Below are positions 12,369 to 63,898 of a DNA stretch of 64,000 nt, one piece after another. The DNA lies in contig OX597818.1 of assembly GCA_951406725.2 (NCBI GenBank), forward strand, positions 109,616,001 to 109,680,000. The letters are read 5' to 3'. Source of the DNA: Octopus vulgaris. Taxonomy: Eukaryota. How positions within the stretch are numbered: the stretch's first letter is position 1; each line of letters begins with the position of its first letter. Under the pieces are notes generated by a model. That model had not been told where the DNA came from and did no database searches. It saw only the letters and a program-made list of their open reading frames with translations. The position numbers and the translations under genes were made by a program.

Positions 12369-12903
12369 TGTTTTAAGTCCGTTTTCCATGCTGGCATGGG
12401 TTGGACAGTTTCACTGGGGACTGGCAAGCCAGGATGTCTCACCAGGCACCAATCTGATCTGACAACGTTTCTAGTTTAGAAAAATACCTTCTAAAAATAC
12501 TTAGTATATGAAAATACCTTGAAATAAAAACGATGCATCTTATGACCAGAGAACGGTTGTAAGAACAACCTACATACACTCAATGCTTCTCATCCAAAAC
12601 TCAGATGCAAAAAGGGGAAGATTAACTTTGTTTTTTTTCTTTTATAATTCATGGAATGTTCCAGATCGTTCTACAGAAGGTCACTCAAGCTACATCCCTT
12701 TTTTAATTTTTTTTTTTTAATTAACTGAGAGGGCACTACATAAGCTTTCAGACATTGCCACTGGCAAAGACCCACACCCGCATAATTTTCTTGCTAGCTC
12801 TACAGTTATCACTATGACTCACAAATAACCACCAATACACCGGCTGCTCTTGCTAAGGTATTTTTCAATGTTATTATTCCGAGTTCGATTCCAGGCTGTG
12901 ACC

Positions 12904-12966
<63 letters not shown>

Positions 12967-13545
12967 TTGAAAAATACCTTAGCAATGAGAACCCAGGTTT
13001 GAAATTTCCCCAAGACATCTGATGAAGGCTGGAGGGTATATCAGCCGAAACGTTGTGTTAACAACAAACAAGATAAGGACAAATATCCGTCAAATGTAAA
13101 TAATGTACAAACATATTTTATTTCTCAATTTAATTTGCTTTCTCTTTGAATCTAATTTTAGTGTTGTCTTATTTCTGTCAGGTCCAGTCATACTGCCGTC
13201 ATTCTCGTTACCAGAGAGGTATTCAGTTCAAACCGAGTCCAAACAGAACAACAGCACAAACATACATATTATGCATGAAATCTATTTTCACAACGTTTCA
13301 AAGCTAACAGTCAGAAATCTAACTCACATCACAAGTTGTTTGTATGATTATAACTTTGACCAACTTGTAACAATAGTCACAGGTAAGCGGCAGATTGATG
13401 GAAGTTTCAGAAACTTAAAAATACCATTATTTAGAATTTCTAATGACATCGACCATGTGGCAATTTCGGCAAAAGTCTTCAACCATACCCTTGGGCTGAC
13501 CAAAGCCTTGTTAACGGATTTGTACACGGAAGCTGAAAGAATCCA

Positions 13546-14546: not shown

Positions 14547-17354
14547 AAACAAAGATGATATAGTCAACTTTTAATACACATATCTTTTAATATAGATTTG
14601 GAAGGAACAAGAATTGGCTCTTGCTCTGTAAATCCACTGGAAAAGCTCTCACCCTGCGTACCTGGTCATACAGAGACTATACCACTTTTTCAAATTTCAC
14701 GTCTTGGAACCTGGGTAAGATGTTTCTTCATATTAATAAATTGTTACTTATAACATAGATTGAACTTTTTCTAGGCTTATGTTTTTGATTTCAATTTTGA
14801 TTCATTAGTTACATCATTTGTGTGCCTTTTATGTTTCCAGGGGACTTATAAAGTAAGTTTTTGGATCAGGTCCTTCCCTCAGATTGAACTTGCACAGTTT
14901 GAATTCTGTTTGCGGAAATTTTCATAAATAAAAACAGAATCTTTCAGATAGAGTAAAATGTCTCCAGCAAAAATATGACCCTTGGATTATATAGAAACAC
15001 AGTCCAAGTTTTCCATTGTTAATGTCATCAGCCAGAATTGTCTTAGAGGACAACAGATGGCACCAGATCTGAAGAGAAAAGACAGAACTTGACAAATATG
15101 ACAAATAGATAAAATGAATGCCATAAGTTTAGTGACCTGAAGAGTGAAGCATAACAACTGGCTTATGTTTGCATTTGGCTGTCTGCACAGCTATGGTTGC
15201 TAAATTGTTGTGTTGCAGAAACAAGCGCCTACACTAACACCATTTTGCAAGTAAAGTCTTCAGCCTCTCTCAACACACATTCTTCTACTATGAACACAAC
15301 ACAGCTCCACAAACTCACTCCAATGTGTTTTTTTTTCTTTGAACCGCTGTGTTTCATGTTAATTTCTAACAATAAAAAAAGTTGTGTCTGGGGAGACTCA
15401 TTCTCTTTTGGTGCCTTATAATTTAACACACTCACTGGTAAAATTTCCACTTACTTGTGAGTATGTTAAATAATAAGGTACCGAAAGAGAATGACTCTCC
15501 CCAGACACTACAAAATATGCTTCAACACATGAACTCATATAAAGAATCTTGCAAACCAAATCCAAAAACGAAATAAAAAAATGATGAACTGAAAAGGGAA
15601 AAAAAACAATATATTCCATATTCACATAATACCTCCCTTACCTTAATCTTTAAATACCAGTCATATTCTAGGGAAAGTATAATTCATCTAAAAAGAAATT
15701 GTAAGCTTATACTTATGAAAGTCCCTTCCAGACCTATGGTAACATGGTGGTGGAACAAAACTGTAGACAGGGCCATTAGAGCAAAGAAACAAGCGTGGAA
15801 GGGTGGGGGTAGCAGGGAACTGTATCGGATAGCCAAAAGGGAAGCTAGGAGACAGGTCTATACATAGTCAAGGGAGTAGCAGAAAAGAAGTTTGCCAATG
15901 TTCTGGAACATGAGGACCAAAGAACGGAAGTATTTCGGATTGCAAGACAGTGTGTGATAGAAATGTGTCTGCATGGATGATGGTGCCCTTGTGTTTAATG
16001 ATTCTGTAAAGAAAGAGGCTTGAAGATGCCATTATGACAGATTGTTGAATGTGGAGAATGAATGGGAGGAGGAGAGTCTGCCAATGGTTGACCCACTTGA
16101 GGGACCAGAGTCAATCAATGAGGATGATGATGATGGAACTAATCCTCAGGAAGCCTAAGCAAAGATGTAACTGTTACCATGTAAACTGACAAATACAGTC
16201 ACGATAAAAAATGAATGTTGTTATTATTATAGTTGCTGTATTTCAGACGGCAAGCTGGCAGAATTGTTAGCACGCTGGACTAAATGCTTAGCAGTATTTC
16301 ACCCACCATTACGTTCTGAGTTCAAATTTCACTGAGGTCGACTTTATCTTTCATCCTTTCAGGGGTCAATAAAATAAGTACCAGTTGTATTCTGGGGATC
16401 GACGAAATTGACTACCCCCTCCCCCAAATTTCAGGCCTTGTGCTTATAGTAGAAAGGCTTACATTTGGTGTATTCTTATTTACATTATTTACATTATTTA
16501 CACTTGACAGATATTTGTCCTCATCTTGTTTGTTTTTAAAACGACGTTTTGGCTGATATATCCTCCAGCCTTCATCAGGTGTCTTGGGGAAATTCCAAAC
16601 CTGGGTTCTCATTCCTAAGGTATTTTTCAATGTAATAATAATAATAATGATGATAATAATAACAACAACATCGAAAATATCCCTTAGAAATGAGAACCCA
16701 GGTTCAAAATTTCCCCAAGACACCTGATGAAGGCTGGAGGGTATATCAGCCGAAACATTGTGTTATCAACAAACAAGATGAGGACAAATATCCGTCAAGT
16801 GCAAACAATGTACATAATTCCTCATCTCTTAAATATAGAACTGTATTTGGTGTATTGTTCTCTTCTCACTTTTGCAAAATTACAATTAAAAAACAAAATA
16901 TAAAAATCAGAATGAGATTTTGCTTTGTTTTAATTGCCATGTCACTGCTTCCATTGTTGACTTTGGAACTATTGACCGATTTTATCTGTATCATGTCAGC
17001 ACTTTCTATCCTATTCTCATCACCATTCCCATCATCACCAATATCCTCCTCCTCCTCACCACCACCACCACCATCACCACCACCACCACCACCCACCACC
17101 ACCACCACCACCACCACCACCACCACCACCACCACCACCACCACCACCACCACCACCATCATCAAATAAAATTTCATTGAAATGATGTTGAGAGGTTTTT
17201 TTCTGACTGAAATGATTCCACAAATTTTTCAGGTGGCAATAGATATGGTTAAAGTACGTCAGATAAAGTCTACCCATTTCGAACTGTGTCTCAATTACTC
17301 AAGCCATGAAGAAATTAAGTTACATGCATACATTGCCGGTAAGTAGTCAGTTGT

Positions 17355-17436
<82 letters not shown>

Positions 17437-20400
17437 GTGTATGCTTGTATATATGTGAGATAATAGTTTCAGTATTAATAGTGAAAGTATTAAACTGAAA
17501 GTATTATCTCATATCACAATAGAGATGTTATTGTTTCACTTTTGGCATGTAATACTGAAATAGTGTAAAAGATAAGAGATTGCTCTGGGCTCGCATTAGG
17601 CAAGAAGTTGAAAATTGTTTTGGCCCATGGCACTGCATGGACCCTAAGTAAGGCATGTGTAAAATTTGAATGAAATTGGTTGGATAGTTCTCAAGTTTTA
17701 GTGATGTACACATACAGACAGGCAGATAGGCACACATTCTCAGTTTTGTATATACAGATTATAATATTTCCATTATGTGTGGTCTATGGTGTGAATGCAT
17801 CTTAATTAAGGTTCTTTCCCCTGATCTAATTAAGGCTCTTTCTCCTTCTAAGTGTAATAAAATATTCTGTTCCCTTAATACCTAAAAATGTTCACAGTCA
17901 TATTGTATTTCAACGCTAACTCTGCTGTCTTCTACCCTGAAGTTTTATGGTCACTCACCATGAACATACTTTACAAGGAACTGTCTTATACTTGAATACT
18001 CAGTTCGCTTCACCCACCCCAGATGGGTAAAACCTTGAACAAAGCCACACAGGAATATCTGCCTGGGATAAGTATTGGGTTGTCCGGAAAGTTCATGCCG
18101 ATTTTTAAAGGAAAGAAAAAGGTCAATAAATACTTGCCGTTACATTTTTAATCAACCAAATCTGAATCATTTTGTTGCACTGCGTCTCCATCTTTCCTTT
18201 AATTTGAAAATAGCCTCTTCCCAGAAATGAGGTGGTTTCATGGCAAAGGATTCATCAAGGTATCTTTTTACGTCATCTAAGGAATTGAAATTTTTACCAT
18301 TAAGACTAATCTGCAGAGACCTGAATAATTGGAAATCCGAAGGAGCAATATCTGGTGAATATCGAGGGTGGGGTAACACATCCCTGCTGAGCTGTAGCAA
18401 TTTTTGTTTGGTTCCCAAAGCATCCCTTCAAGGCATTGCCCCAGCATGACCGCAGTCTGGTGATTAAGACAAGTGAAAAATACAAAAATACATTTGTTAC
18501 GTATATTTATCTCCGTTTGGTTGTAAAAGAAGCATTGCTCAATCGGGCTTTATGACTGTAAGTAATATCTATTTTCATATTTTGAAGATTCATGGAATTT
18601 TCCTGAATTAAAACCAGAGTTTTCCGCTTTTGTGATGATAAAATTCGAAGAAGTAGATGGAATCATTGTAAATGATTATGTTGATTTCCACACAAGCCCT
18701 ACCTATAAAAATATACAGGTGAGATAAACAAAATATATAATTTCTGAAGTAAATCTGGAATTTTCCATGAAGGAATTAATATTTTAAAAGGTTTTATGTT
18801 AAAAAAGGTGACATTTTATGGGACACATAGTGTCATCATCATCATCATCATCATCGTTTAATGTCCGTTTTCCATGCTAGTATGGGTTGGATGGTTCGAC
18901 TGGGGTCTGGGAAGCCAGGAAGCTGCACTAGACTCCAGTCTGGTCTGGCAGTGTTTCTACAGCTGGATGCCCTTCCTAATGCCAACCACTCCGTGAGTGT
19001 AGTGGGTGCTTTTTACGTGCCACCGGCACAGCTGCCAGGCAAGGCTGGCAACAGCCACGATCAGTTGGTGCTTTTTACGTGCCACCGGCACTGGTATCAC
19101 AACTACAATTTCCATTGATTTTTGATCGATTTCGATTTCATTTTATATAAATAACCTGTTTCTTCAATATTTATGACTGACTTAGTAATTTCTGCATTGA
19201 AAAAGTGCCTTAGAAGCGAAGCAGGCAGATTCTGCAGCTCAGTTTCAATTCCTGTTTTTGGTAACTTCTCTTCTAGATCTTGCTGTGCTTAACTTGTTGT
19301 AAAGTTAGCTGTGATAGATCCATGTATTGATGTCCAGGCTGGTGGTATTAATACCGTGGAACCCTTGTTATCTAGAGAAGTAATTTTAAAAGAAAACTTG
19401 ATATGATAATTTCTGATTTTTGATTTTAGTTACCTTTTGGAACATTCTGTGAAAATATGAAATTTCGTAACGTATCCTTGCCTAAAATACCAGATGTCTT
19501 CGCCATGCACTACGAGAAAGTATTCCTAAAGGAGATAACTACTGAAAAGGTGAGACTGAACTCTTTAGATAAAAATGTAGGAAGTTGTTAATCTTACGCC
19601 TTTCTTGAGAAAACAGTTCTATATTTAGGAGATGAGGAATTAATTACATTATTTACATTTGATGGATATTTCCCCAAGATACTTGATGAAGGCTGGGGCA
19701 GGTATATCAGCCATGGGCATATGGCGTAGTGGTTAAGAGCGTGGGCTACTAACCCCAAGTTCCCAAGTTCAATTCCAGGCAGTGACCTGAATAATAATAA
19801 TTTCAATAATAATAATAATAATGATAATAATATTCATCATCATCGTTTAACGTCCGTTTTCCATGCTAGCATGGGTTGGACAGTTCGACTGGGGTCTGGG
19901 AAGCCAGGAGGCTGCACCAGGCTCCAGTCTGATCTGGCAGTGTTTCTACAGCTGGATGCCCTTTCTAACGTCAACCACTCCATGAGTGTAGTTTGTGCTT
20001 TTTATGTGCCACTGGCACAGGTGCCAGGGTAGGCTGGCAATGGCCACGATCGGTTGGTGCTTTTTACGTGTCACCGGCACGGAAGCCAGTCAAGGCGGCG
20101 CTGGCATCAGCCACGTACGGATGGTGCATTTTATGTGCCACTGGCACAGGTATCATAACTACAATTTCCATTTGAGTTTTTGATGTTGATGGTTATTATT
20201 TTTTGATGTTGCTGTGTTTACATTGCCATATCTAAGTGGTTTGATAAAAGAGACCGACAGAGTAAGTACCAGGCTTAAAAAAATAACTGCCTGGCTTGAT
20301 TCATTCGGCTAAAATTCTTCAGGGCTCTGCTGCAGCGTGGCCACAGTCCAGTAGCTGAAACAAGTAAACGATGGAAGAAAATTAAACATCAGACATTAAC

Positions 20401-23400: not shown

Positions 23401-23865
23401 ATAATTTAACATAATTTAACATATTATGACAAGTTCTATGACCATTGAAGAATATTTATTGTATGAATGCCGTTATGTTGATTTCATTACAGGTCACAAA
23501 TACACAATTATTAAAGCAACAGGGCAATGCCAGAATGTTGAGATACTTCAGAATGGCGATCTGTTTGTGGAAGGATCTTCTTCAAAATTGAAAATGACTG
23601 ATGCCTTAAGTTTCTTCTATCTGAAGAAATCCACCTTCGAATATATTGGAATGGTATGTATTATGAAACATCAAATTCATGGTTCAGTTCTATATTTAAG
23701 AGATGAGGAATTATGTACATTATTTACATTATTTACATTCGACGGATATTTGTCCTCATCTTGTTTATTATTAACACGACGTTTCGGCTGATATACCCTC
23801 CAGCCTTCATCAGGTGTCCTAGGGAAGTTTCAAACCTGGGTTCTCATTCCTAAGGTATTTTTCGA

Positions 23866-23904
<39 letters not shown>

Positions 23905-24023
23905 CATTATTCAGGTCACTGCCTGGAATCGAACTTGGAATCTTGGGGTTAGTAGCCCACACTCTTAACCACAACGCCATATACCCACGGGCATATGGCA
24001 AGTTCAATTCCAGGCAGTGACCC

Positions 24024-24071
<48 letters not shown>

Positions 24072-25875
24072 CATCAAAAAATACCTTAGGAATAAGAACC
24101 CAGGTTTGAAATTTCCCCAAGACACCAGGCACATCACTGAAGATGTGTCCAGATACATGTCATTGGTGTATGCACACAATGAGAACAGTGGTTCGAAGGT
24201 CAATGAAGAAAAAAATCAAAAGTGAATTGTGTGATTCATAAGATATTCACATTTAAAACAGCCAGAAAATATTGACAATGTGTTGATCTGACAGCTGGTG
24301 GCGACTGGTTAAATTGGTGAATGGGAATATGCTTCTTGGGCTGCATTTAGAAGTAACTGAACAACACCCATGGACATTCAACAGATGGTTTATTTGTCAC
24401 ACATAAAGACAAACTGTGTTAGTCTTTTACAGATAACAACAGCAATAATTCCATACTGGGAGAGAGATACTGATGCAGCAACATTTGGCTTGCCCAACAT
24501 AATTGGAAACAAATGTTCTATATTCATGGCAATGGAGGTTCTTGGTAATCTGTCTGAGCTGTTTGAATAGGCCATCTGGTGTGGCAAGGATGGGAACACA
24601 TCTCACTGGGTTGCTTCAACATTCTGCAATTAATTACTGCCAAAAGAAGCCTTTTATAGAATTCAGGAAGGTTCTAGAAGACAAAAACATGGGATGGCTT
24701 AACCCTGATTGGTTTCTCAATAGACCATTCACGTGAGACAGTCGTGATGCCTGACCGGTTTTCCAGGGATTTGCTTTTGAATCTCCGCTACTATACGTTA
24801 AATAATTTTTATTTCATTTCTAAATATTCCTTTCATTTATTTGGAATTAAAAGCTTCATCCAGTTGTTTTAGAATGGGACAAAGGCAGTGAGACTTTGTA
24901 ACATTGTTCCATTAACATTTGTCTCTTTCATCTTTATTTTTCTGGTCACTCCTTTCGATTAAATATTTCATCCCTTACTTTTAGCAATTTGTCTGAGATT
25001 TTAAACTTAGATGTAATATCCTTGTATTTTTAGCGTCAACTCCGTGGTGTCTTGTGTAATGTGTGGGCTGGATATCATTTTGACGAGGATTCCAGAGAAA
25101 ACACCACTATAGAATGGTATTTTACGCAGGTAATTTTTGAAATTCAATAACAGGATTCAAATTCATTTTCAAATAGTCATTAAATGAGTTTGGAAAATAA
25201 ATTATGTCCCCCCACCCCAATATGTCCTAAGTTCAGTAAATTTATGCATTCACATACAATGTTCTGAGCCATTCTTCAAATATGCAATGTTATGGAAAAA
25301 TGTAGTTTATTTTCAAGTATATTCGATTAGCCACTACACACATTTTTTTCTCTCGTTTTTTTTTTTTCTGTGTCCCTTTCTGTAGAAGAGTGTAGGCTCG
25401 AAACGTAAAAGACTTTTTTCTATTCCTGAGCGTTATACTAATACATCTGTTTGTTTTGTACACCACCTGTCTTCGTCTTTTGTTTTTTTCGTAAACCCTC
25501 CCTATATAAACAAATAACTTGCTTATCTTCTGATGTAAAGGAAAACATAAGGTAAGTATCAAAGCCAGGTCAATATCAATAACTCAGAACAACAAATCAA
25601 TCAATTGTTTAATCAACTAGATAAAAATTATGTGGTCGAGTAGAAATAAGGTATGGCTGTGTGGTAAGAAGCTTGCTTCCCAACCACATGGTTCCGGTTT
25701 CAGTCCCTCTGCATGGCACCTTAAATGAGCTTTTCCGTTTCTTTTCGCCTTATATAATAATAATAATGAAATTATTATATACAGTGCTCAGGTGCAAGTG
25801 TCTTGTACTATAGCCCCTGGCCGACCAAAGTCTTGGGAATTGATTTGGTAGACGGAAATTGAAAGAAACCAGTCG

Positions 25876-27542: not shown

Positions 27543-27721
27543 ACATATATATGTGCATGTGTATATTTATGTATATATAAGTGTGTATAACCATAGGTAC
27601 ATACTTATATATAAAAATAATTTATAGTCTACGGACAATTTTTACACATGCTGGCCACTGGTATAAATTATTATTTAAAATTATTTTTACCCTTAGTATA
27701 TTTATATTTGTATGTGTATAT

Positions 27722-27754
<33 letters not shown>

Positions 27755-27972
27755 AAGTTAATCCAAACATGAAAACACAAAGAGAAAACACAACAACGCG
27801 AGGACGTGGAACAAGTATAGTATTATTGGATGCTCAGGAAAGAAGGAAAAAAGGAGGATTTAACGTTTCGAGTGGAACTCTTTGTCAGAAACATAGGAAA
27901 GGGAAAGATCCAAAGAAGGGAAGATGGAAGAAAAAAAATCGCCAACGGTACACACGCGGTCACATTTTGAAT

Positions 27973-28016
<44 letters not shown>

Positions 28017-28930: not shown

Positions 28931-28973
<43 letters not shown>

Positions 28974-31900
28974 AAATTGATAGATAGACAGGTAGGTAGG
29001 TAGGTAGTGTTGTCATCATAGTAACTAATAAGTTTTGGTTTAAAATGTGGGAATTTTAAGTGCAAGTCTGTCAACACAATGCAACACACTTCAAAAAAAA
29101 TCTATATGTATATATATATATAGACCAAATGCCTGGTCCAATTGATTTGAGAATCACAGTCGCCCTTTGTTAGAGCTGCTTTCAGTGAACTAATCAAACG
29201 TTGCTGAGATGCCCAAACTGGTCTGTTGCCTTTTACTTGTTTCAATCATTTAACTGCGACCATGCTGGGGCACCACCTTGAAGAATGAATCAACCTCAGT
29301 ACTTGTTCCTTCTTAACCCTGATACTTATTCTATCAGTCATTTTTGCTGATCCATCCATCCATCCATCCATCCATCCAGACAGACAGACAGTAAGTCAGC
29401 CAGCCAGCTATTCATCTGTCTATCTCGTTACGTCTTTCATTGCTCAGTCAAAACTGGAAGAGCAGCTGATGTGAACTTTTGCAGGGCTTCTGAAGCTGGT
29501 GGGAGCTAGTCAGAATACTTGCTAAGTGAGTGGACTCTTCAAAAGCATCCAATGGCAGTCACATGTTGGTGTTAAATTAAGCGACAGGAATCCTGTCGTA
29601 TAACCGTAGTAAGTACAACCCACCTGAACAGTCTACCATACCCTTTATCATCATCATCATCATCATCATCATCATTTAGCGTCCGCTTTCCATGCTAGCA
29701 TGGGTTGGACGGGTCAACTGGGGTCTGTGAAGCTGGAAGGCTTCGTCAGGCCCAGTCAGATCTGGCAGTGTTTCTACGGCTGGATGCCCTTCCTAACGCC
29801 AACCACTCCGCGAGTGTAGTGGGTGTTTTTTACATGCCACCTGCACAGGTGCCAGACAGAGATGGCAAACGGCCACGAACGGACGGTGCTTTTACGTGTC
29901 CCCGGCACGGGGGCCAGCCGAGGTTTGCAACGAACACGAATGGATTGTGCTTTTACGTGTCACCAACAAGGGGCCAGACAGAGCTGGCAAACAGCCACGA
30001 ACGGATGGTGCTTTTACGTGTCACCGGCACGGGGGCCAGCCGAGGCTTTTCATTAACAAAACTTAATGCGACCAAAAGCATGATATCAAAAAGTACAATG
30101 TGGTGTGATAAAACCTGGAACAACATGTTTGCGAAGTAAACATTTTAATCACATCACAACACATGCTTTTAGTGTTTTTGGGGCAAGTTATGTTTGTATT
30201 TAGCTCTGTGTTGCATTGAAACACTTGTCAATTGCAAAGTAACTCTGCTATCAACAACTGTAAACTTTCCTACTCTAAGCACAAAGCCCAAAATTTTTTG
30301 GGGGAGGGGGCCAGTAGATTAGATCGACTCCAGTACGCAAATGGTACTTAATTTATTGACTCCAAAAGGATGAAAGGCAAAGAACACAAAGACAGATGAA
30401 ATACCATGAAGCATTTTGCCTGGCGTGCTAACATTTCTTACTGCCCACAAGTTGCTAAACATAGAGGGGACAAACAAGGACAGACAGACAGATTAAGTTG
30501 ATTACATCGACCCCAGTGAGTAACTGGTACTTAATTTATCGACCCCGAAAGGATGAAAGGCAAAGTCGACCTTGGCGGAATTTGAACTCAGGATGTAGCG
30601 GCAGATGAAATACCGCTAAACATTTCGCCTGGCGTGCTAACGATTCTGCCAGCTTGCCGCCTTTTAACAATTGCAAGCTGTATGACTCATTCTGCTCGGA
30701 AAGGAAGGACTGGTATGGCATGTACCTACATTCGTTTTTGTTGGTGCTGATACTCAACATAATATGAATGTGAGACAAGATAGATGATATGTTGTTGATG
30801 TTATTGTTAGTCACTATCAGTGTTGTTTAATCCCAGCTCAGATCTGATCACGATGACTGATGATTAAAGTTATTTTTACCTGGTTTGTTTGTGGTGATGA
30901 ATAAAAATGTATATGATTATTGCTGTTGTTATTAGTAAAAGACCAATACCTGTGCAGATATCTGGAATCGTCTGATGTGTCAGGAATGGAGGCAGATATT
31001 GCTCAGCTGCCTTGACAACAAATGAGACGTGCGCTGCAAAAAGTGTTGGCACCAAAACTGGCTTTTTGTAAGCCATGGAAAGAAGATTCCAAAAGTTTGA
31101 ATCATGTGATTGCTTGACGCTGATTGGTTGCTTAATAGATTGATTACATGAAGCTGCTGTAGTTTGGCCACGACATAACATTTTAGCGATTTGGTTTCGA
31201 ATCACCGCTTTAATATTATAACACATCTTGCTTTTTTATTCAGACATAGTTCATTCCGAACCACATTCTTCAATATATCCTTCCTTAAAAAGAGAGTTGG
31301 GTGTTATCTGAAATTGATTTGGCTGCAATTTCTAGCAAGTTGAGTAAAAAGGAATTTGAAGTTACTTTTTTTGTCAGTTGTTTTCTTGTTATATTTTCTC
31401 TTTCGCTTTTCTTTTTTTACTGGTATTGTTGTTGTTGCAATTCTTACCATTTTTTTTAGTTCCATGTGATTTTACTCCTCTTGGTGTTTGAGCTGAGCGC
31501 TACATAATTGTTAATTACTGTTACCAACAGTGAGAAAATAATCTTTCTCTACAAACACATCCAGTCCCTTGTCCAACTTGCTCTAGATATGAGCAAATAT
31601 GTCTAAAGACATTTTCTCATTGTCTTTCCTTTCACTGCTTTTCTCTTTATTTCTTACCAGTGAACAATAAAAGCAGGACAATTCTAAGGCACCTGACAGA
31701 TCATTCTTCAGTTCAGCAATTACAAGTAGCACTTTCAAAAATGAGTCAAATAACGCCTGTTCGAATCGCTCAGACAGAGGTAATGTTTCCTATTATATTC
31801 TTAAATAGAAGATTGTATATACAATAACGAAATTGTGATAAAAAGGATGGTGTACCTAATGTGGAGGCTGGGATAAATCCTCATCATCATTTAAAGTCCA

Positions 31901-32493
31901 TTGTCCATACTGGCATGGGTTGGCATTCTGGAAGGCTCCAGTCTGATTTGGCATGGTTTCTATAGCTGGATGCCCCTCCTAATGCCAACCACTTCAAGAG
32001 TATAATGGGTGATTTTACATGCTACCAGTATGGGTGCTATTCGCACATCTGCCACGACTGCGATTTTGCTCAGCTTGATGGGTCTTCTTCTCAAGCACGA
32101 CATAATGCCAAAGGTCTTCGTTATTGCCTCTGTGAGGCCCAACACTCGAAAGGAGCTCAGCCACTTTGCCCCCATGAAGCCAAATGTTTGAAAGGAACTC
32201 AGCTACCTCACCACCGAGAGGCTCAACAATATATAATGCAACTAGGTGGCTGGGTTACTATAATGATGATATTTACTTTGATTTCATCAATATTCCATAA
32301 GTTCAATTCCAGTGTGTACCTTTTTCTCCATCTTTTACTTGTTTCAGTCATTAGACTGTAGCCATACTGAGGCACTGCCTTGACAAACTTCAATGAATCC
32401 AACCCAGTATTTATCAACATTTAAAGCCTGGTACTTATTTTATCAGTGTCTTTTATCAAACTGTTAAGTTACAAGGACATAAACACACTCACA

Positions 32494-44809: not shown

Positions 44810-45427
<618 letters not shown>

Positions 45428-45526
45428 CCGGAGTAAACACATAAATGTGAAACAAGGTGGAAAAAAGAGTACTCAAATACCAGTGGTAGAGTAATATGCT
45501 TTATTTTAAGCAGCAGAAAATTCAAC

Positions 45527-45574
45527 AAAATCTGTTACTCTGAGTTTCTCGTTGCCGTTCATCAGACAGTTTTT
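45527..45574 (-). ncRNA. type-I hammerhead motif (left arm)
   Basis: Reverse complement of 47104-47151. Confidence 0.7.
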
Positions 45575-47103
45575 GCTAGAATGGAACATATATATTAATT
45601 CAATCTATACTCTTACAAACGCTACACCTTTAAAAAGAAATGGACTTGTTTGATTGGCCCTTTAGAAAAAACGGTCAATCTTCGAGCGATAAACAAAAGG
45701 TCAAAAATATATGTATATATATATATAAAAAAACTTATAAAAATTATAAAATCCGAGGAAAAAACCGAGGAAAAAACCTATTGCCGTTAATGAAGACAGT
45801 ACAAATTAATGCATAGAAATTAAACCTGTTATAAATACTGCAATACATATTTATATTAAAATCCACATATATATATCAACATACACAAAAGGATGCGCGT
45901 AAACGCCATACATACATATACAGACGTATGAATATGAATCTAAATTATACACATAAAAGCATGTGTACATATATTCACGCAAACCGTCTCGCACGCAAGC
46001 TAAAATTCATCTATGTAGCAATTCTCATATACTGAGCAAGGAGGGGGAACGAAAGAAAGGGAAAGAGAGAAAAAGGAACGAAGGAGGGGTGGGGAAAAAA
46101 CTTGTAGCGATATTATTGTCATCTATAGAGGCCAGTATACATACACAAGTTTGAATTGATACATATACATATACACAAGTTTGAATTGATACATATACAT
46201 ACCGTCGTGTGTATGCGTGCTTAAGCACAAGCATACTTGAAGATTACCTTGATTATTTATATTACCTTGATTATTTATAAATGACCCAAAATAGGATGTT
46301 ATATTTTATTTTATATGTCTTTCGTATATATTTTTATTAATGCACCCATCTTTTAAAAGCAATGTTTTTTTTAAAAAAAGCAATGTTGTCAAATTTAGAA
46401 TGTTTATATAAGTTTGTGTATAGCAAAGCATATGTATTTGTAAGCATGCGTAACTGTGTATGTGTAAGTGAAAGTATGCTTGTGCTTAAGCACGCATACA
46501 CACGACGGTATGTATATGTATCAATTCAAACTTGTGTATGTATACTGGCCTCTATAGATGACAATAATAACGCTACAAGTTTTTTCCCCACCCCTCCTTC
46601 GTTCCTTTTTCTCTCTTTCCCTTTCTTTCGTTCCCCCTCCTTGCTTAGTATATGAGAATTGCTACATAGATGAATTTTAGCTTGCGTGCGAGACGGTTTG
46701 CGTGAATATATGTACACATGCTTTTATGTGTATAATTTAGATTCATATTCATACGTCTGTATATGTATGTATGGCGTTTACGCGCATCCTTTTGTGTATG
46801 TTGATATATATATGTGGATTTTAATATAAATATGTATTGCAGTATTTATAACAGGTTTAATTTCTATGCATTAATTTGTACTGTCTTCATTAACGGCAAT
46901 AGGTTTTTTCCTCGGTTTTTTCCTCGGATTTTATAATTTTTATAAGTTTTTTTATATATATATACATATATTTTTGACCTTTTGTTTATCGCTCGAAGAT
47001 TGACCGTTTTTTCTAAAGGGCCAATCAAACAAGTCCATTTCTTTTTAAAGGTGTAGCGTTTGTAAGAGTATAGATTGAATTAATATATATGTTCCATTCT
47101 AGC

Positions 47104-47151
47104 AAAAACTGTCTGATGAACGGCAACGAGAAACTCAGAGTAACAGATTTT
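47104..47151 (+). ncRNA. type-I hammerhead motif (triplet GUA)
   Basis: CUGU-CUGAUGA-A-CG-GCAA-CG-A-GAAA-CUCAGAG-UA-ACAG. Confidence 0.7.
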
Positions 47152-47179
47152 GTTGAATTTTCTGCTGCTTAAAATAAAG

Positions 47180-47212
<33 letters not shown>

Positions 47213-47235
47213 GTATATGTATGTATATGTTTGTT

Positions 47236-47269
<34 letters not shown>

Positions 47270-47287
47270 TGTATGTATGTATGTATG

Positions 47288-47318
<31 letters not shown>

Positions 47319-52967: not shown

Positions 52968-54108
52968 ACTTGTCAATCGGTAAATGGAAAGTTTTACAGA
53001 TTTTTACAGTTCCGAATGATGGACTGGATCTGTAGTCTTCGAATTAGCTTTCTCCTTTCTGATTTTGAGGAACCTAATTTCTCAAGATTGGTAATTAGGT
53101 AGAGTGTTAAATATCCCAGGGCCCCAATAATTACAGGTATAAGCCTGAACTTGTAATCTGGATAGAGTATTTGCAGATTTCTCAATAGTTCAGCATAGGG
53201 TATTCCCTTTTTTACACTGATCTTCAGCTTTATATTAACATCCACTGGGCAGCTAGTTTCCACAACTGTACACAGTTTCTCTTCTCTATCCCAAATCATT
53301 ATATTAGGCCTGTTGTCCTTACATTTTATTGAGGTCTTCGCTAGGACATTCCACCAGTATTCCTTTTTATCATGAAGTGGCTATGGTTTCTAACAATCTG
53401 TGGGGTTTTATTTCTTTGTCCTCGGGATTATCTTTCCGACGGATTTCCTTACAGAGTGTCCTAGCTACAACGTCATGTCTCATCGGTAGATAATACCGTG
53501 ATGACATTTTCGGACAACTGCTTATGATGTGGGTGATATCTTCAGTATGAACTCCACAAACTCTGCATCAGTTGTCACAGTTTACTGCTTTTCCAGCATC
53601 TCTATCCCTTTTGTGCATCAGGTGCTTGGTTAATAGTTCCTGTTCCTGGATTGCAAACGCATACCCTTCAAAGTGGGAGGTAGTAATCCGGCTATTCGTC
53701 CATGATAATCCGCTTTGATGATCGATGTTACTATCATCTCGGAGCTTTCTACTAACATATCCATGCATAGTCTTTTGCTCATCCTTTCATCTGATGATAT
53801 GTTGCAGTAGAGTCGTGTGACTTATTTGGGCATGTATTCTAGGTTATCAGACAAAGAGTGTGACTCAAGGAGCTGCCTTCCACGTCTTATGATGTTATCA
53901 GCCTCATGTATGCAAACTTGGTCAAGAGATGCACTTCGACACTTGGTGGTTAAAAGATGTTGCCGAAGGGATGTGATGCGACATTCAAATTCATTTCGGA
54001 TCGATGTTAAGAGTCTGCCGCCTTGTTTTTGTTTTAGGTAGTGGCGGTTTACGTCACTGTTGATGTGGAAATCATATGCGCTTGTTAGCATTTTCGAGTT
54101 TTCACGGT
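52968..54108 (-). mobile_element. R4/Dong-clade non-LTR element, 3' ORF part (CCHC finger and REL endonuclease)
   Basis: CRVCG...ITHIISSC, RHD, WWN, RP.I.IWD, SCP.D, PVIIGALG. Confidence 0.85.
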
Positions 54109-54358
54109 GTATGTATGTATGTATGTATGTATGTATGTATGTATGTATGTATGTATGTATGTATGTATGTATGTATGTGTGTATGTATGTATGTATGTAT
54201 GTATGTATGTATGTATGTATGTATATGTGCAGATTTGTATGCTCTGATTTATGTATTCTCATGCATATAGTTGCATATCTAGACATATATGTATGTCTCT
54301 ATGTATTATGTATGCATATATACGAGTGTATGTATCCCTCCCGCTGTCTGTTTGTCAC

Positions 54359-54390
<32 letters not shown>

Positions 54391-55624
54391 AATCTATATT
54401 TATGTATATGGCGTCACTACAGCCTTTGCACCATTCAAGTGTAACCGCTGATCGCAGTTTGAAGGATGATGGAACCTCTCTACCAAAGTTACTCATCTAT
54501 TAAGGACTGGATAACAGTGAAATTCTTCTGCTGCCTAAAGAAGCTTATGAAGTCGACATGGCTATTGCATGAAAAAAAAAAAAAGAAAAAAAAAAGGTAT
54601 CGGCGGTAGATCGGGGCTTGTGGGGTCGGAGCGTGACCTGATCATCGCTTCATTTGTATTGTTTTTGTATTGTTTATTCCATTCGATTTTTTTATATATT
54701 GTATTTTATTTTTAAAGTCACACTTATGTAAAATCATATCGCTTTACTGATCCCATCAGTTGTTCTGTCCATTTCTATGTTTGTCCTCTGGTGGGCAATA
54801 ATGAAATTCGTATTCGACCCCGTTCACATCCATTTTGTCTTATAACGTTTTCCAAATCCGATCAACTAATGCATGGAAATACGTATTTTAGAAATCCATA
54901 TTGCTGTTATCGGTGGAAATAATTAACGAACTTAATTGGTTGCGACGATGGGAGTTCCAGTTGATCCGATCGACGGAACTGCTTGCTCGTGAAATTAACG
55001 TGCAAGTGGCAGAGTATTCCAAAGACACGCGCACACTTAACGAAGTTCCCAAGGAAAGAACGTGACAAGGCTGGCCTTTCGAACTACAGGTACTACCAAA
55101 ATTCGAACTCATGAGCGTGTGCCGAATGTCCTTAGCACTAAAGACATGCGGCTACACTATACATCTGTACTAAATTAAAGAATGACTCATTGACATTGTC
55201 TTAGTCACATAAAAAACCTGCACACACACACACACTCACACACTCACACATAGAGGCCGTGGTTGTTTACAACGTAGAATTGTCGCCGTGTTATGTTATT
55301 TATTGCTTGTCCTTCAAACAGCCAGCTGTTGCGAACGGCTGATGACATATTCCAGGAATCGATACCCAATGATAAATTATTGATCCCCCTTTCATGGAAT
55401 TTCAGTTATTTTTGTTTACTGTAAATATGTAAATAAAGTTCACACAATTAAATAAGCTGTAACTCGGCTCCTCGATACGAAATAAGACGAACCAGCGGCC
55501 CGGTTTCGATTCCCGGTTTAGTCACTTTTTTTTTTGTATAATTTATCCATTAATTAGTGTAAACAGTGAACGATAAACTGATAAATTTCGCAACTTTCAA
55601 ACATAAGTATCATTATTTCACTAC

Positions 55625-56130
55625 AAAAGGTGGTGACCCTGCAGAATCGTCTGCACGCTGGACAAAATGCTTATTGGTATTTCGTCTGCCGCTACGTTCT
55701 GAGTTCAAATTCCACCAAGGTCGACTTTGCCTTTCATCCTTTCGGGGTCGATTAAATAAGTACTAGTTACGCACTGGGATCGATATAATCGACTTAATCC
55801 ATTTGTCTGCTGTACTTCTTTGTCCTATCTGTGTTTAGTCCCTTGTGGGTAGTAAAGAAATAGGTATTTCGTCTGCCGCTACGTTCTGAGTTCAAATTCC
55901 GCCGAGGTCGACTTTGCCTTTCATCCTTTCGGGGTCGATTAAATAAGTACCAGTTACGCACTGGGATCGATATAATCGACTTAATCGGGAAAATGCTAAG
56001 CGGCACTTCACTCGCCCGTCTTTATGTTCTGAGTTCAAATCTCGCCCATATCGACTTTGCCTTTCATCCTTTCGATTCCGATAAAATAAGTACCACTTCC
56101 CCCAAGCTTGCTGGCCTTGTGCCAAACTGG
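55625..56130 (+). mobile_element. tandem array of SINE family A (three partial units)
   Basis: 55676-55797 is repeated almost exactly at 55863-55986. Confidence 0.85.
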
Positions 56131-57485
56131 GAAAGTAAAAGTACGTTAAGGAGCGGCTGGAAATCGCTTGACATCTGCTTGCTTTCGGATATCCTATTGC
56201 ACAACACTTTGGACAAGTACTTTCTCCCATTGTTTCAAGTAGCCTAAATTCTTCTGAACTAAATTTAGTAAATAGGAATTATCTGGAAACCCGCCGAAAG
56301 AGTTGTTCCTTTCCTCGTCTGATATATTCAATCATTCGTCCGATTTAACGCCGCCACCACCATACTTTATTCTGGTGTAATCATCGGATAGTTTCCGGTC
56401 CGAATATAATTTCCCTTCGCACCGACATCAGAGACAATGAAAAGAATAACGGGTATTGCACTTTTGACTGAATCGTTAAATATCGAACCGATAAAGCGCT
56501 GGGATTTGCACTTACATAGCATGGACTACTGAGCACATTTTATGAAAATGAGACAACCGTGCACACATGAAAAACAAAAAAATAGTTTAAATATCTTCTT
56601 AGTATAAAATGGTGGTAAGTTCTATATCGTCTGAAAAGTCATTAGTTGAACTATTAGTCCTCTTGCATTCTGGGAAGGGGGGTATTGGAGTGTTTGAGTG
56701 ACATTAGACCCCAACAAACGCCCATAAATTAAATGCAATTATCTGGGCCAACATCGTGGTCTGTCAACCTGTGTCTGACGGCCACGATTGTGGCCCGTCG
56801 CGCTTTATGTGTTAATTTCAAAAATCAAACGATGAACGAAATCAATGTTCATGGGTCAAAAACAAAAAATAAAAAAAAAAAAACTCAACAATAACGAAAT
56901 TCAAACTAAGTAGATCAAGGCGTACGTGAAGCTCCTGCTCGACACATCTTCGAGGGTAATAATTAATTCCACCAAGATAATCTGGTCGACATAGAATACA
57001 ACGCGAAGCCAAAGTCGTAAATAATTCTTTAACGTCTCGCTTGGTTCTGGGACTCGTCAATATCAAAATGCAAACAACACTAACATAAAGTTCTTCATCT
57101 ATTTCAGATCTTGAATTCAGAAAGAATACAAACGTTGAAAACACTGTGAATCGAACTCTTAAGTATCAAGACATCGACTTTTGCCCGGCGCCTGTTCTAC
57201 CTAAAAAGACTGATTTAAAAAACCCTCGTTGATTATATACGGTCGTGTTTCTCAAGTTTGGAATCAATTTTTCCCCAGATCTCGGGTATAGCATATCCCT
57301 GAGTGTGGATTTTGTTCCAGCTGTGTTGGCCACACAAGAATATTGAACTAAAGTCACCGGATCGCTGCTACTGGAAACTGTTCCAAATCAGCTGAACATT
57401 TGCGGATGGCTTCAGAATAAATTCTTTTATATTTTTATAAAGAAAAATAAACGAGTTTTGTTACAATTGTTATTCGCGTGTATAT

Positions 57486-57520
<35 letters not shown>

Positions 57521-57784
57521 TTCATTCATTTATTTGAAGATGAACCAAGCGTTCAAATTGGGAGTCTATGTGGTTAGTCATCGTGCTAGATATAACAGAA
57601 CAACTCAAAACACAACCTTGTCTGATATTCAACACCTTATTCATTCTGAGTTCCAATTAAAGCAACATGGACTTTGCATTCTGTAATTGGTTGTGTTCTC
57701 TCCCGGAATTCTACCAATTCTGACTGAAATATGTATAACAAAGATGATTTTTAACATTTTTAAAAAGAATTATTTCAAGCAATT

Positions 57785-58961
57785 TATTTTACGTATGTTT
57801 TATATATGTATTCTCATGCATAGAGTTACATATCTAGACATGCTCATACATATTTAAATTATAAACTTCTGGAAAGTTTTACAGATTTTTACAGTTCCAG
57901 TAATGGATTGGATCTGTAGTCTTGGAATTAGCTTTCTCCTTTCTGGTTTTGAGAATCCTGATTTCTCAAGATTGGTATTTAGGTAGAGTGTTACATATCC
58001 CAGGGCCCCAATAATTACAGGTATAAACCTGAACTTGTAATCTTGATAGAGTATCTGCAGATTTCTCAATAGTTCAGCGTAGGTCTTCTTTTTTTCACCG
58101 ATCTTCAGTTTTATGTTAACATCCACTGGGCAGCTAATTTCCACAACTGTGCACAGTTTCTCTTCTCTCTCTCCCAAATCATTATATCAGGTGTGTTGTG
58201 CTTACATTTTATTGAGGTTTTCACTGGTACATTCTACCAATATTCCTTTTCATTATGAGTGGCTATGGCTTCTACCATATTGTGGGTTTTTATTTATTTG
58301 TCCTCGGGATTATCTTTCCGACGGATTTCATTACAGAGTGTCCTAGCTATAACATCATGTCTCATCGGTAGATAATACCGTATTGACATTTTCGGACAAC
58401 TGCTTATGATGTGGGTGATATCTTCAGTATGAACTCCACAAACTCTGCATCAGTTGTCACAGTTTACTGCTTTTCCCGCATCTCTATCCCTTTTGTGCAT
58501 CAGGTACTTGGTTGATATTTCCTGTTCCTGGATTACAAATGCATACCCTTCAAAGTGGGAGGTAGTAATCCGGCTATTGGCCCATGATAATCCGCTTTGA
58601 TGATCGATGTTACTATCATCTCGGAGCTTTCTACTAACATATACATGCATAATCTTCTGCTCATATAGGTTCATCCTTTCATCTGATGATATGTTGCAGT
58701 AGAGTCGTGCGACTCTTTGGGCATGTATTCTAGGTTATCAGACAAATAGTGTGGCTCAAGGAGCTGCCTTTCAAATCTTATGATGTTATCAGCCTCATGT
58801 ATGCAAACTTCGACACTTGGTGGTTAAAAGATGTTGCCGAAGGGCATTTTGGATCGATGTTAAGCCACTACCGCCTTGTTTTCGATCTAAGCAGCGGCGG
58901 TCTACGTCACTGGTTATGTGGAAATTATGTGTGCTTGTTAGTATTTTTCGAGTTTTCACGG
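57785..58961 (-). mobile_element. second R4/Dong-clade copy with ORF end and 3' UTR
   Basis: Colinear with 52968-54108; ORF ends TGTVKICKTFQKFII*. Confidence 0.88.
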
Positions 58962-59139
58962 TTTATGTATGTATGTATGTATGTATGTATGTATGTATGT
59001 ATGTATGTATGTATGTATGTATGTATGTATGTATGTATGTGTGTGTGTATGTATGTATGTATGTATGTATGTATGTATGTATGTATGTATGTATCTATGT
59101 ATGTATGCATGTATGCATGTATGTATGTATGTGTGTAAT

Positions 59140-59938: not shown

Positions 59939-60789
59939 TGCATGAATATTCTGATTTTAGTTTTCAACTTTTTCTCACCACTATATAAAGAACAGCTTTG
60001 TTCTCTGGAAACAAACTGAAAGAGACAAATTTCTTTCAAGAGAATTTCACAAACAACATTTATATGTGTGTATATACCTGAGTATATGAATATGCGTATA
60101 TGAAAGTGTGTATATGAATGTGTGTATATGGATGTATGTCACTGCATATGTGGATTTGTATGTTTAAATTATGTTTGTGTACGCATAATATATTTCTTTG
60201 TCTATACGTGCGTATGCGCACTTGTTATACGCTAAATCTATGGAATGTTTTACGTGTTTTCACAAAAAGTTATGTATGTATGTATCTTTGTTTGTCTGTC
60301 TCTGTATGTATGTATGAATGCATGTATGAATATGTATGTCTGTAATTATGTATGTATGTATGTATTTTTGTCTGTCTGTCTGTCTATGTATGTATGCAAG
60401 GCGGAGTGTGAGTTCTTTTGCGTTTTATTTTTCAAAGAAAGAATCCGTCTCAGACTTTGACAATAACAACAATTAGGTTACTGCTGTGCATGAATTCCAG
60501 GTCAGCAGGGATTAATCAGGTTGATGATCAAAGGCTTCCAGCCGAGGCCATCACGACATTCTTAGGAGCATCTAAGACTATATTATATGTGGCGTTAGTT
60601 TCTTTAAAATGGTATGCCTTTGTTAGAGGTTCACAAGTAGTTATAGATCTATACAGGACACAAAAACGGTCTTTATTGTCTAACTGCGGCAATTATGTAT
60701 ATGCATGCAGGTTATTATTCAGTTTATTTCAAGATTCCTTTCCTCCAACCTGATGAACAACATCCTCTCTTCTCCAACATGGACCAGTT

Positions 60790-61625
60790 CCAACAGGGAG
60801 TTGGATGAACACTAGAGGGAATTGAGCTTATCTGCCCCTGGGAAGGTGGAGGACTCTTGGAGTCAGAGAGCTTGTGACAACATAATTTCGGACTCCCTCT
60901 TCATCCAGTTGGACCAGTTTTCAAGGTGTTGCTTACTGTCTACTAGCGCCAAGTACTCAGATGACTGGATTGATGCCATCTCTGTGGCTAACATTGGTAG
61001 CCTACTCAGCTTGGACGAACTTCGTGTCCCCATTGCCCTCAGAATGGGAGCTGACGTATGCACGGGTTTGATCTGTCGTTGTGGCAGGCTCCTCGACTCC
61101 ACAGGTCTCCATGGCCTTTCTTGCCGCCTGAATGCTGGTTGCTTCATGCGTCATACAGAGTTGAACCTGATACTCAAGAGGAGCTTGACCTGGGCAAACA
61201 TCCCCTGCGTCTTGGAACCATCTGGATTGTCCAGATGTGATGGGAAGACACCTGTCGGTCTCACCCTGCGCCCCTGGTCGCAAGGCAGATGCTTTGTTTG
61301 GGATGTCACAGTTAGCGAGTCCTTTGCTTCTTCTCACATTCTGGATGCTGTGGTCAAGCCGAGATTCACAGCTTCTGCTGCCGAGCAGAACATAATCTTG
61401 AAATACCGCGATCTGTCGGCCAACGACATTTTCCATCCTGTGGCGTTCGAGACGTTTGGTGGGGGTCGGACACTTACTACGAGATTCCTGTCTTCCCTGG
61501 CAACTCGCCTTGCAGAGGTTACTGGAGAGGCTCGTGAGGGTGCTTGGCTGTTCCAGCGCATCAGCCTCGCCATCATCCGCGGCAATGCAGCAAGCGAGCT
61601 GGCATGTCTCATTAGTCATTGGAAA
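60790..61625 (+). mobile_element. CRE-clade non-LTR element C-terminus (zinc finger and REL endonuclease), decayed
   Basis: CRCG..LDSTGLHGLSC, RH..LN, LEPSGLSR.DGK.P.G (RPDG mutated), WDVTV, KY, PVAFETFG, LFQRISLAIIRGNA. Confidence 0.88.
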
Positions 61626-61904
61626 GCTTACCCGGCGCCCCCAACTTTTCAACTCAAGTTGGTGAGTTGTTTTATTTCTTTTGTTTTTTTTTTTGTTTTT
61701 TTCTCTTTCTTTCTCTCATTTTTTTTCTTTTTCCTTTTTAATTTTTTCAGTTGTTCTTTGTTTTGACCAGTTTTTAGTTTGATTTTGTAAAACGGTAGAC
61801 ACTGTGAAGGCAATAAAAATCTTAATTAAAAAAAGTTACAAAGACTATTTACAACGCCCTGACGTGTACATGTCAGAGCCAGCTGGTGTTGACACCTTTA
61901 AAAA

Positions 61905-62360
61905 CAAGGTATACTAGGGGAACACTCCAATAAAAACACCAATCCAGTGCAAACACAACGGACATGGAAACCACCTCCCCCCTGTGGGATGAAGTTAAAA
62001 TAATAGAGCGAGAACACCATTAGAAAATAAGAAAACTAAAAGAAGCAGCACATATGCTAGGACACAACATCCTTCTAAGCAGACTGAGTGCAGATATGAA
62101 CAGCAAATGGAACCAGTATTAAGGAAGGATAGGAGAATATTAGATTTATAAGCCCTAAAAAATTCACTGTATAATTGCCCCCCCCCCAGGCATGTGGCAT
62201 AGTGGTGAAGAGTTCGATTCCAGGCAGTGACCTTAATAATAACATCGAAAATTCCCCAAGACACCTGATGAAGGCTGAAAGGTATATCAGCCGAAACGTT
62301 GTGTTAACAACAAACAAGATGAGGAGAAATATCCATCAAATGTAAATAATAGACATAATA
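61905..62360 (+). mobile_element. Penelope-like element 3' end: GIY-YIG endonuclease C-terminus followed by a pLTR with tRNA-like head and hammerhead
   Basis: From 61982: LWDEVKIIEREHH*KIRKLKEAAHMLGHNILLSR.S.DMN..W. Then A/B-box remnant at 62189-62232 and hammerhead at 62260-62305. Confidence 0.8.
62260..62305 (+). ncRNA. minimal type-I hammerhead motif (GUU)
   Basis: GACAC-CUGAUGA-A-GGCUG..CAGCC-GAAAC-GUU-GUGUU. Confidence 0.7.
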
Positions 62361-62364
62361 CTGT

Positions 62365-62685
62365 GAGTGATAGGGAACAAAATTCATGCGCTGTTGCAGA
62401 GATCAGCTGCCCAGGGGATGAAAATGTATAATCAGAAGTTGAGAGAAAAGAAAATATTTGCGGTGAATTAAGGCGGAACTTAGAGCTCTTGAACCCTGAC
62501 TATAAAAATTCTTTTGCACCTATCATCGTAGGTGCATTAAGCTATGTATCTTTAGATTTACTTATCATCCTAGGAACTGGATTTTTCGAGGAAAGAACAA
62601 AAGAAATTGGTGCATATCCTCTCAATTCTGTCTGTTAGTGGCACAGTGAAGGTTTGTAAGACATTCCAAAGATTCTTCATTTGAT
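62365..62685 (+). mobile_element. R4/Dong-like REL C-terminal fragment
   Basis: ISCPGDENV, PIIVGALSYVS, SVSGTVKVCKTFQRF. Confidence 0.75.
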
Positions 62686-63898
62686 ATTATTTATATGATG
62701 AGGTTCGCATATTTGATTTTTGGGCATTAAAAATTCAGTCAACATCTCAACTCAACGACGTGATTAAGAACACCGGGAACTCCCTTAACTGAAAGAGTCA
62801 TGTCGCTTTGTTGGCGACCGGCTTCAACTCTCTTATGAGCCGTTCAAGAATTTGGACCTGGAGATCTCCATTTCCAGCGACTTCGAGAGCCACCTCCCAG
62901 TGGTGTCGGGCGTCAACGAAGAGCTCTCGACTACAACAAGACGACCAAAGTTTTTTTTTCCAAGGTCTAGGGTCTCCTGCCCGTAAGCCCTAGACCATCA
63001 CCTAATCACCCTTATCCGTCTTGTTGCTAAACAACAACAACAACTCTCTTATGAAGAACTTAAATAAATCTCAAAGAAAAAAACACACACATACATATAT
63101 GCAACTCATGGCCATAGACGACCATCACAGACGACAAAAAGTGAATGAATAAACACTGCTAGGATACACTGTCGCAGGGGGAGATTTCAAGGAGATCGTC
63201 TTTCTGTAGGATTATAAATACTTTCAGTGAACGCCTTGTTCATTTTGTTGAGAAAACACGAAGAAAAAAGCACCAAACGCTAGACAAAACTAGCTTCTGG
63301 GTGACCTGAAGTATATATCGAAAATACGAATGCGTTAAAGAAAACCGAAAATATGAACAGGAGCCTTGACCTGGTTACGAAATTCTCAAAGGACATAGGG
63401 GTAGAATTTGGTCAGAAAAAAAATTGTTCCTTCTCGATTTTTAAACAAGAAGAATCAACACGTGAAGGCAATAATCTCACAAATAATGGTCTGACTAAAA
63501 TGTGTATCACGGAATTGAACCCATCACCCAGAGGATGATGTCTAAATTCAAATGAAAGAACTTTGTTTCTTGGTTAGAAACCAGCATTTTCACACACGAA
63601 TTACTGACATTCTAATCGATAGTGTTTAAATCCCAATAAAAGAACCTTGTCTTTGTTGGGGATAGAAACCTGTTCTTCTGTATTGGTGAGAAGTTTGAAA
63701 CATAAAATACGTTAAATCTAAATACCTTCTATTATGATGTTATTTAGGTCAAATCATACAATGCTCTTTTGAAATATGAATATTAAAATGTTTTCCATTG
63801 TTTGGTTGGGTTAGTTTACTAATTTCATGCAAAGACCAAGGCCACACCGCAATAGTAAATAGCAATGGGTTTGGCGTCAATGGAAAATACCTGAGACG

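Follow-up and report, generated by a model that had tools for sequence, protein, structure and literature searches.

A tRNA-Arg-derived head with A and B boxes in the pseudo-LTR of a Penelope-like element family of Octopus vulgaris

By sequence comparison, the repeated module in the 64-kb stretch of Octopus vulgaris DNA analysed here (the window) is the pseudo-LTR (pLTR) of a single Penelope-like element (PLE) family of the Penelope/Poseidon group, and it opens with a head derived from a tRNA-Arg gene. The RNA of the element probably starts a few bases upstream of this head, from its A/B-box promoter of the Pol III type, and would then be primed internally by the element's own reverse transcriptase (RT).

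The original prediction placed a decayed GIY-YIG C-terminus directly against such a module at 61,905-62,360. This part held up, with the fragment at 61979-62110 being 70% identical to the C-terminus of the PLE protein P0127 (E 5e-14). The parts of this focal copy, read from sequence and folding, are:

61964..62151, plus strand: 3' end of the PLE ORF, where the GIY-YIG region ends; truncated on the 5' side and carrying a single internal stop and a single frameshift
62149-62151, plus strand: family stop codon TAA
62152..62187, plus strand: spacer from the stop codon to the head; 29 nt in the family, with the poly-C expanded in the focal copy
62188..62232, plus strand: tRNA-Arg-derived head; A box 62195-62205, B box 62212-62221
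62233..62243, plus strand: (AAT)n tract, short in the focal copy and of varying length across the family
62260..62305, plus strand: minimal type I hammerhead, inside the ORF N-terminus, with no stable helix III
62260-64 pairing with 62301-05, plus strand: hammerhead stem I
62265-71, plus strand: hammerhead core CUGAUGA, plus an extra A
62273-77 pairing with 62288-92, plus strand: hammerhead stem II, then GAAAC-GUU; predicted cut after 62300
62306..62351, plus strand: ORF N-terminal codons up to the shorter of two 3' end sites

The A box of the head at 62188 reads TGGCATAGTGG. About 28 nt including the anticodon arm are deleted, leaving an A-to-B box gap of only 6 nt, and given this deletion the focal head is likely inactive. 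A second deletion, of ~35-40 nt, removes the predicted start codon. The motif GACAT at 61961-65 and again at 62352-56 looks like a 5-nt target duplication of the focal copy. The insertion splits another decayed coding element, whose flanks (61880-61963 and 62352-62700, plus strand) share one frame; a Pfam search of this element gave no named match, and from their motif we take the flanks to be similar to the endonuclease region at the C-terminus of Dong/R4-type LINEs. At ~60700-61650 on the plus strand lies the end of another, separate non-LTR ORF, also decayed, where a zinc-finger-like and a restriction-like endonuclease-like stretch can be made out by eye, followed by a T-rich run. Repeats of other elements also occupy 45330-47317 and 52985-59106 of the window, with one inverted pair of 0.9 kb (89%) and one direct pair of 1.3 kb (88%).

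Across the family, the stop codon is followed by a 29-nt spacer, the 73-nt head, (AAT)n, the predicted ATG, the hammerhead, the tail and then the rest of the ORF. When the family was searched with the ORF end (2,334 candidates, of which the best 30 of 40 scored matches were examined), BLAST showed that the ORF end is immediately followed by the head in 28 of 29 loci other than the focal one, and the 29th carries a shortened head recognized by eye. With the head in this position in all 29, a chance adjacency of ORF and head is excluded; the head is a fixed part of the pLTR, so the objection of a chance insertion fails, and the original placement of a tRNA head within a PLE pLTR is upheld. At its other end, the module tail runs on into the ORF N-terminus in four long copies (L062, L074, L080 and L082), and the N-terminal stretch that follows the tail matches the protein P0009 (E 3e-20). 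Since the tail continues into the ORF, the head occupies the promoter position, upstream of the ORF start. The earlier reading had missed this arrangement, in which the head evidently precedes the ORF start and the hammerhead lies within the reading frame.

Upstream of the ORF end, the family sequence extends with falling coverage into an RT, recognized in the upstream part of other copies as Pfam RVT_1 (E 1.4e-10). The assignment by sequence comparison rests on 372 homologues of the ORF, including an 836-aa Anolis protein at 44% identity. For the C-terminus, the aligned counterpart is the GIY-YIG region of P0087, a relative from Anolis (E 2e-12); the family ORF itself gave no direct Pfam match to GIY-YIG, and the homologue P0025 has Pfam GIY-YIG at the matching place. 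The pLTR is found on both sides of the ORF, with inverted partners, and one end bears a tail of 30-40 nt. A distant PLE protein was used to look for a sister PLE family lacking the head, and all 30 loci retrieved belonged to the same head-bearing family. The closest relatives outside the family have 55-68% identity. The P0013 cluster includes a relative annotated in the barnacle Amphibalanus amphitrite, with 54% identity in the RT, and others without a name that reach 67-68%; horizontal transfer among marine animals is possible. A metagenome scan with P0009 gave no match. Every part of the element is present in DNA contigs of two further organisms.

The head aligns end to end with genomic tRNA-Arg(ACG) over 73 nt, from the same first base, at 67% identity and with a score of 66, against a maximum of 41 in 1,000 shuffles. 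In a ranking of 30 tRNA sequences against the head the top six were all Arg, in a set that comprised six amino-acid types only and for which the Arg(ACG) genes were retrieved by a search pattern designed to find them. About 19 tRNA-Arg(ACG)-like genes lie elsewhere in the genome in a dense tandem cluster (G000:C2:211893168-211907120). Both boxes are kept in the family, as had been proposed: among 109 full heads, the A box is retained in 77, the B box in 77 and the two together in 52. The cloverleaf is lost, and neither ARAGORN nor Rfam called a tRNA in the module. Over the whole window, Rfam at gathering thresholds and ARAGORN returned no tRNA or hammerhead, and an Rfam E-value scan of one palindromic locus found neither family. 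The last 7 nt of the spacer are self-complementary with the head start. A stand-alone SINE with the same head was not found in 1.24 Mb, a sample biased towards family loci; every match above 27 bits in it was the family itself, other SINE heads reaching at most 20 bits, which rules out a stand-alone parent within that sample. Behind the ORF of distant PLE relatives with at least 100 nt of flank, the A/B pattern was detected in none of 32 and a hammerhead in 10, while ARAGORN on 54 of 80 distant-relative loci gave three tRNAs, all antisense.

Recurrence of the module elsewhere in the window was borne out, with all five sites found and eight arm matches. The ~300 bp module as originally drawn consists of elements that exist, but it is a composite of several copies rather than one; the only complete arm in the window is 23684-23998. 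The "two copies" reported at some sites are indeed two arms, arranged head-to-head in inverted orientation and not in tandem. Apart from the focal copy, the sites are:

12876..13111, plus strand: short copy with B box, (AAT)n, hammerhead and short 3' end, no A box; small inverted stub immediately upstream
16482..16845, both strands: inverted pair without head; short end on the minus arm, tail on the plus arm
19612..19830, both strands: rearranged inverted insertion; intact head at 19711-19794 on the plus strand, then (AAT)n and another repeat, no body
23684..24128, both strands: head-to-head pair with its centre near 23990; minus arm complete with tail, plus arm with a deletion in the head and cut before the hammerhead

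The (AAT)n tract is repeatedly hit by insertions of other repeats (window position 19830; L044, L052, L024 and L130), and in L074 a tail is joined to the (AAT)n tract of the next copy. The endonuclease of the anole PLE prefers ATT, and the tract may, by analogy, also be the element's own target.

Exact matches to the 33-nt hammerhead core number 2,166 across the 2.8-Gb genome, against none for the reversed control, and the core is intact in 131 of 216 complete units. The cleavage triplet had been given as GUC. This did not survive: the focal locus reads GUU, 228 of 229 units in the retrieved loci have T as the third base of the triplet, and GTC occurs in none of the 131 intact cores, which also rules out GUC as a family triplet eroded by CpG decay. 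GUC is present in the 23685 copy. Stems I and II fold, a palindromic AACGUU replaces helix III, and when two cores were cofolded the active dimer was not the minimum-energy structure. Metazoan PLE minimal type I hammerheads are reported to have low activity, and only as multimers (PMC4209133). The copies have their 3' ends 55-85 nt downstream of the predicted cleavage site, and cleavage is described as dispensable for insertion of the anole PLE in vitro (PMC11167929); for these two reasons self-processing is probably not needed for the insertion of short copies. The hammerhead would cleave only as a dimer or with the help of protein, and insertion would be independent of cleavage.

Arms number ~25,000-32,000 genome-wide, ~2,800 of them ORF-linked. 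These figures derive from exact 20-mers (junction 796, head 5,148, tail 11,811), corrected by exact-match rates in independently chosen loci to ~2,800 junctions, ~18,600 heads, ~32,000 tails and ~25,000 cores. The short copies carry the insertion marks of PLEs. In a hammerhead/tail motif sample (100 loci picked, 13 overlapping ones dropped, 87 kept), an inverted partner was present at 61 of 87 loci, and in 46 of 53 pairs the ~30-nt tail was restricted to one arm; inverted partners and a one-arm tail are both described as PLE marks (PMC8557442). On the 3' side the copies end at either of two sites, both within the start of the PLE ORF, and a LINE-derived 3' end with an A-rich or simple-repeat tail is absent. 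The short copies are thus, from their structure, read as inserted by PLE machinery. Short (108) and ORF-linked (44) units differ at p<0.01 in one of 257 columns, where chance gives ~2.6, and are equally diverged (5.5%, n=104, vs 5.8%, n=36; p=0.38). Because of this, we identify the short copies as solo pLTRs of the same master or masters, spread in one burst, and not as a separate SINE lineage. Hence the original idea of solo pLTRs moved by the PLE machinery stands, and that of a separate SINE moved in trans is not supported.

Most of the short copies begin at the head, with their 5' break just upstream of it. Break samples were first-listed places on contig C1 with an exact motif match, the exception being the upstream-pLTR sample, which came from 39 loci with an ORF N-terminus. 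Of the 87 motif loci, 39 have their 5'-most point at the head start and 15 have it in the ORF; in 12 others it lies within the head, and in 21 further 3'. Thus 39 of the 54 loci that reach the head start stop there. In an intact-head sample (90 of the first 100 among 3,055 intact head starts, 4 duplicates dropped, n=86), 65 loci break within ~10 nt upstream of the head and 21 run on into the PLE spacer; the 65 include 17 of 17 solo copies. The break rate is 0.12 per nt upstream of the head vs 0.0029 in the ORF (~40x). Four upstream pLTRs among the 39 ORF N-terminus loci reach the head start; three stop there, and L485 continues into an ORF end.

Pol III starts 10-20 nt upstream of the A box on tRNA-type genes. 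In the mechanism we favour, transcription would start near -6, 13 nt upstream of the A box, and the breaks fit such a start because that spacing matches a Pol III start. The RT would prime internally at two tail sites, as in the anole PLE, whose RT is described as priming internally at two sites bounding the tail (PMC11167929). Priming in the first pLTR would give a 300-nt copy ending at the RNA 5' end, and priming in the downstream pLTR would give ORF-bearing, 5'-truncated copies. Two cDNAs at one target would join by their 3' ends, helped by the self-complementary leader, to yield head-to-head pairs with the tail on one arm. In twelve of the 39 copies with an ORF N-terminus (L448-L485), the end lies 300-352 nt beyond the tail, a hint that the RT may prime at a third site.

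For a Pol III RNA to span the ORF, the sense strand must be free of T runs. No sense-strand T4 run is common to the 28 long copies, compared with 30 common A4 sites and 3.3 common T4 sites expected from synonymous resampling (P ~0.03). For T4 per single copy, 4 of 14 copies reached p<=0.05 and the remainder were not significant; control PLEs showed no depletion (369 T4 observed vs 385 expected in 74 stretches), with 3 of 28 long stretches at zero. The T4 absence would fit Pol III read-through of the ORF and is weakly suggestive of it. In RNA-seq from a related organism (two runs, ~6% of each), both strands were equal and no start peak was seen at the head; such libraries mostly sample copies inside host transcripts. 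A strongly expressed host transcript with a 5'-truncated copy (L239:990) was seen in runs X21 and X23, the same junction appearing in 342 and 181 reads. Translation of an uncapped Pol III RNA is difficult; a different transcript may therefore be required to make the protein. The intact boxes could also be relics of a captured SINE head. A more far-reaching scheme is that an autonomous PLE swapped its Pol II promoter for a captured tRNA-Arg gene, such that the whole 2.7 kb would be Pol III-transcribed, with a terminator-free sense strand allowing read-through, cap-free translation, and SINE-like solo copies shed from its own 5' end. We consider this scheme possible but doubtful. If true, SINE and enzyme donor would be combined in one molecule, a snapshot of SINE birth from a Penelope element.

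The breaks at the head start could have other origins. The head might be a passive relic, with the breaks resulting from RT stalling or fold-back at the junction hairpin on longer Pol II read-through RNAs. The hairpin of leader and head is the most stable local one in 500 nt (median -9.0 kcal/mol) and the strongest 36-nt window near the junction; it forms the centre of many head-to-head pairs and the main loose end among the RNA reads (371 and 303 reads), and the spacer looks like a decayed inverted head. We nevertheless find this explanation unlikely. Hammerhead stem II is nearly as stable (-8.1), yet only 8 of 87 loci break in the 150 nt including it. In one long copy, five further windows equal or exceed the junction hairpin in stability, and breaks do not pile up at equally stable hairpins. 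The breaks fall on the 5' side of the hairpin loop rather than at the stem base, and all 17 solo copies break in the leader without an inverted arm. Under simple fold-back the template-sense (AC) arm should never be the shorter of the two, yet it is in six of the eight readable cases (seven more are ambiguous).

Even with an RNA start near the head, transcription could be driven by Pol II from a promoter within the spacer or the end of the ORF, on the model of Drosophila Penelope, leaving the tRNA sequence as 5' UTR only. A capped mRNA would solve the translation problem, and the spacer has a motif near -17 that we take to be initiator-like; moreover, the Drosophila Penelope pLTR is described as having an internal TATA-less promoter (PMC2377424). 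This seems quite improbable to us. A Pol II start near -17 would leave a PLE-type leader of 8-23 nt, which is found in none of the non-ORF copies, and the breaks lie 10-20 nt upstream of an intact A box, the Pol III start position. The sense strand without a common T4 run also argues against it. The last possibility is that the short form is its own SINE lineage, whose solo copies are transcribed, process themselves through the hammerhead and move in trans. Heads outnumber ORF junctions by ~6.6 to 1, both boxes are retained in those 52 of 109 full heads, and a few copies have a reversed (GT) leader, as expected from a palindromic source. This we judge very improbable, given the near identity in sequence and divergence of short and ORF-linked units described above. 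The direct tandem arrays required for monomer release by cleavage are not seen, with one direct tandem in 86 loci and the 87 hammerhead/tail-motif loci all inverted or solo, and copy ends do not coincide with the cleavage site.

Compared with known systems, the octopus element is most readily set beside Penelope/Poseidon PLEs such as Drosophila virilis Penelope and Anolis Poseidon PAc (PMC11167929), with which it shares, as described there, a single ORF of RT and C-terminal GIY-YIG and a pLTR that provides 3' and 5' UTR, a dual role reported for the Drosophila Penelope pLTR (PMC2377424). Also shared are a minimal hammerhead overlapping the ORF start, two 3' end sites ~30 nt apart, and inverted 5'-truncated partners. 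Unlike in known members, the octopus pLTR opens with a full-length tRNA-derived A/B-box head followed by (AAT)n; the promoter of Penelope itself is TATA-less and internal, with an intron, and the octopus family has the A/B-box head instead. The schistosome repeats Sm-alpha and Sj-alpha are short and SINE-like and likewise combine a promoter of the Pol III type with a type I hammerhead behind it (PMC6765202). As described in that source, in which no enzyme partner is named in the portion available, they are tandem, non-coding units freed by cleavage. The octopus module, in contrast, belongs to an autonomous element and has a minimal core, and its copies are scattered and for the most part inverted. 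Animal non-LTR retrozymes (PMC7229834; bioRxiv 10.64898/2026.07.22.740005) are, in the accounts available, also short hammerhead units related to PLE pLTRs; the accessible text of the bioRxiv paper mentions no tRNA head and that of PMC7229834 no Pol III or SINE. Retrozymes are described as tandem arrays, whereas the octopus copies are solo or inverted and undiverged from their own PLE.

SINEs are by definition non-autonomous Pol III elements that borrow LINE enzymes. The octopus tRNA-derived SINEs OK, OR1 and OR2 were reportedly described by Ohshima and Okada in 1994, and OR2 has been classed as a CORE SINE (PMC4758252). Like these, the octopus short form has a head with kept boxes and lost cloverleaf and exists in tens of thousands of ~300-nt copies; unlike them, its body consists of a PLE 5' UTR and ORF start instead of a LINE tail, it has no 3' simple-repeat tail, and its insertion geometry is of the PLE type. 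An existing SINE entry, OR1 or an unclassified one, may already cover the short form. Already known, according to the available text of two reports (bioRxiv 10.64898/2026.07.22.740005; PMC7229834), are the PLE, its hammerhead and short repeats derived from pLTRs. The published literature searched revealed no tRNA or Pol III head within a PLE, and the accessible part of the 2026 octopus repeat annotation (PMC13282606) none within an autonomous PLE; the repeat library of that annotation may list the family. The structure of the octopus element is well documented, and we think it reasonably likely that its RNA is made by Pol III-type initiation at the head.

The family joins a tRNA head and an enzyme gene in one element, and thousands of copies map the likely RNA start. 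It thereby opens to test whether Pol III can drive a protein-coding retrotransposon, how tRNA heads join retroelement ends as SINEs arise, and which enzyme moves repeats that combine Pol III promoter and hammerhead, such as schistosome Sm-alpha. Some octopus repeats annotated as SINEs may be solo Penelope termini.
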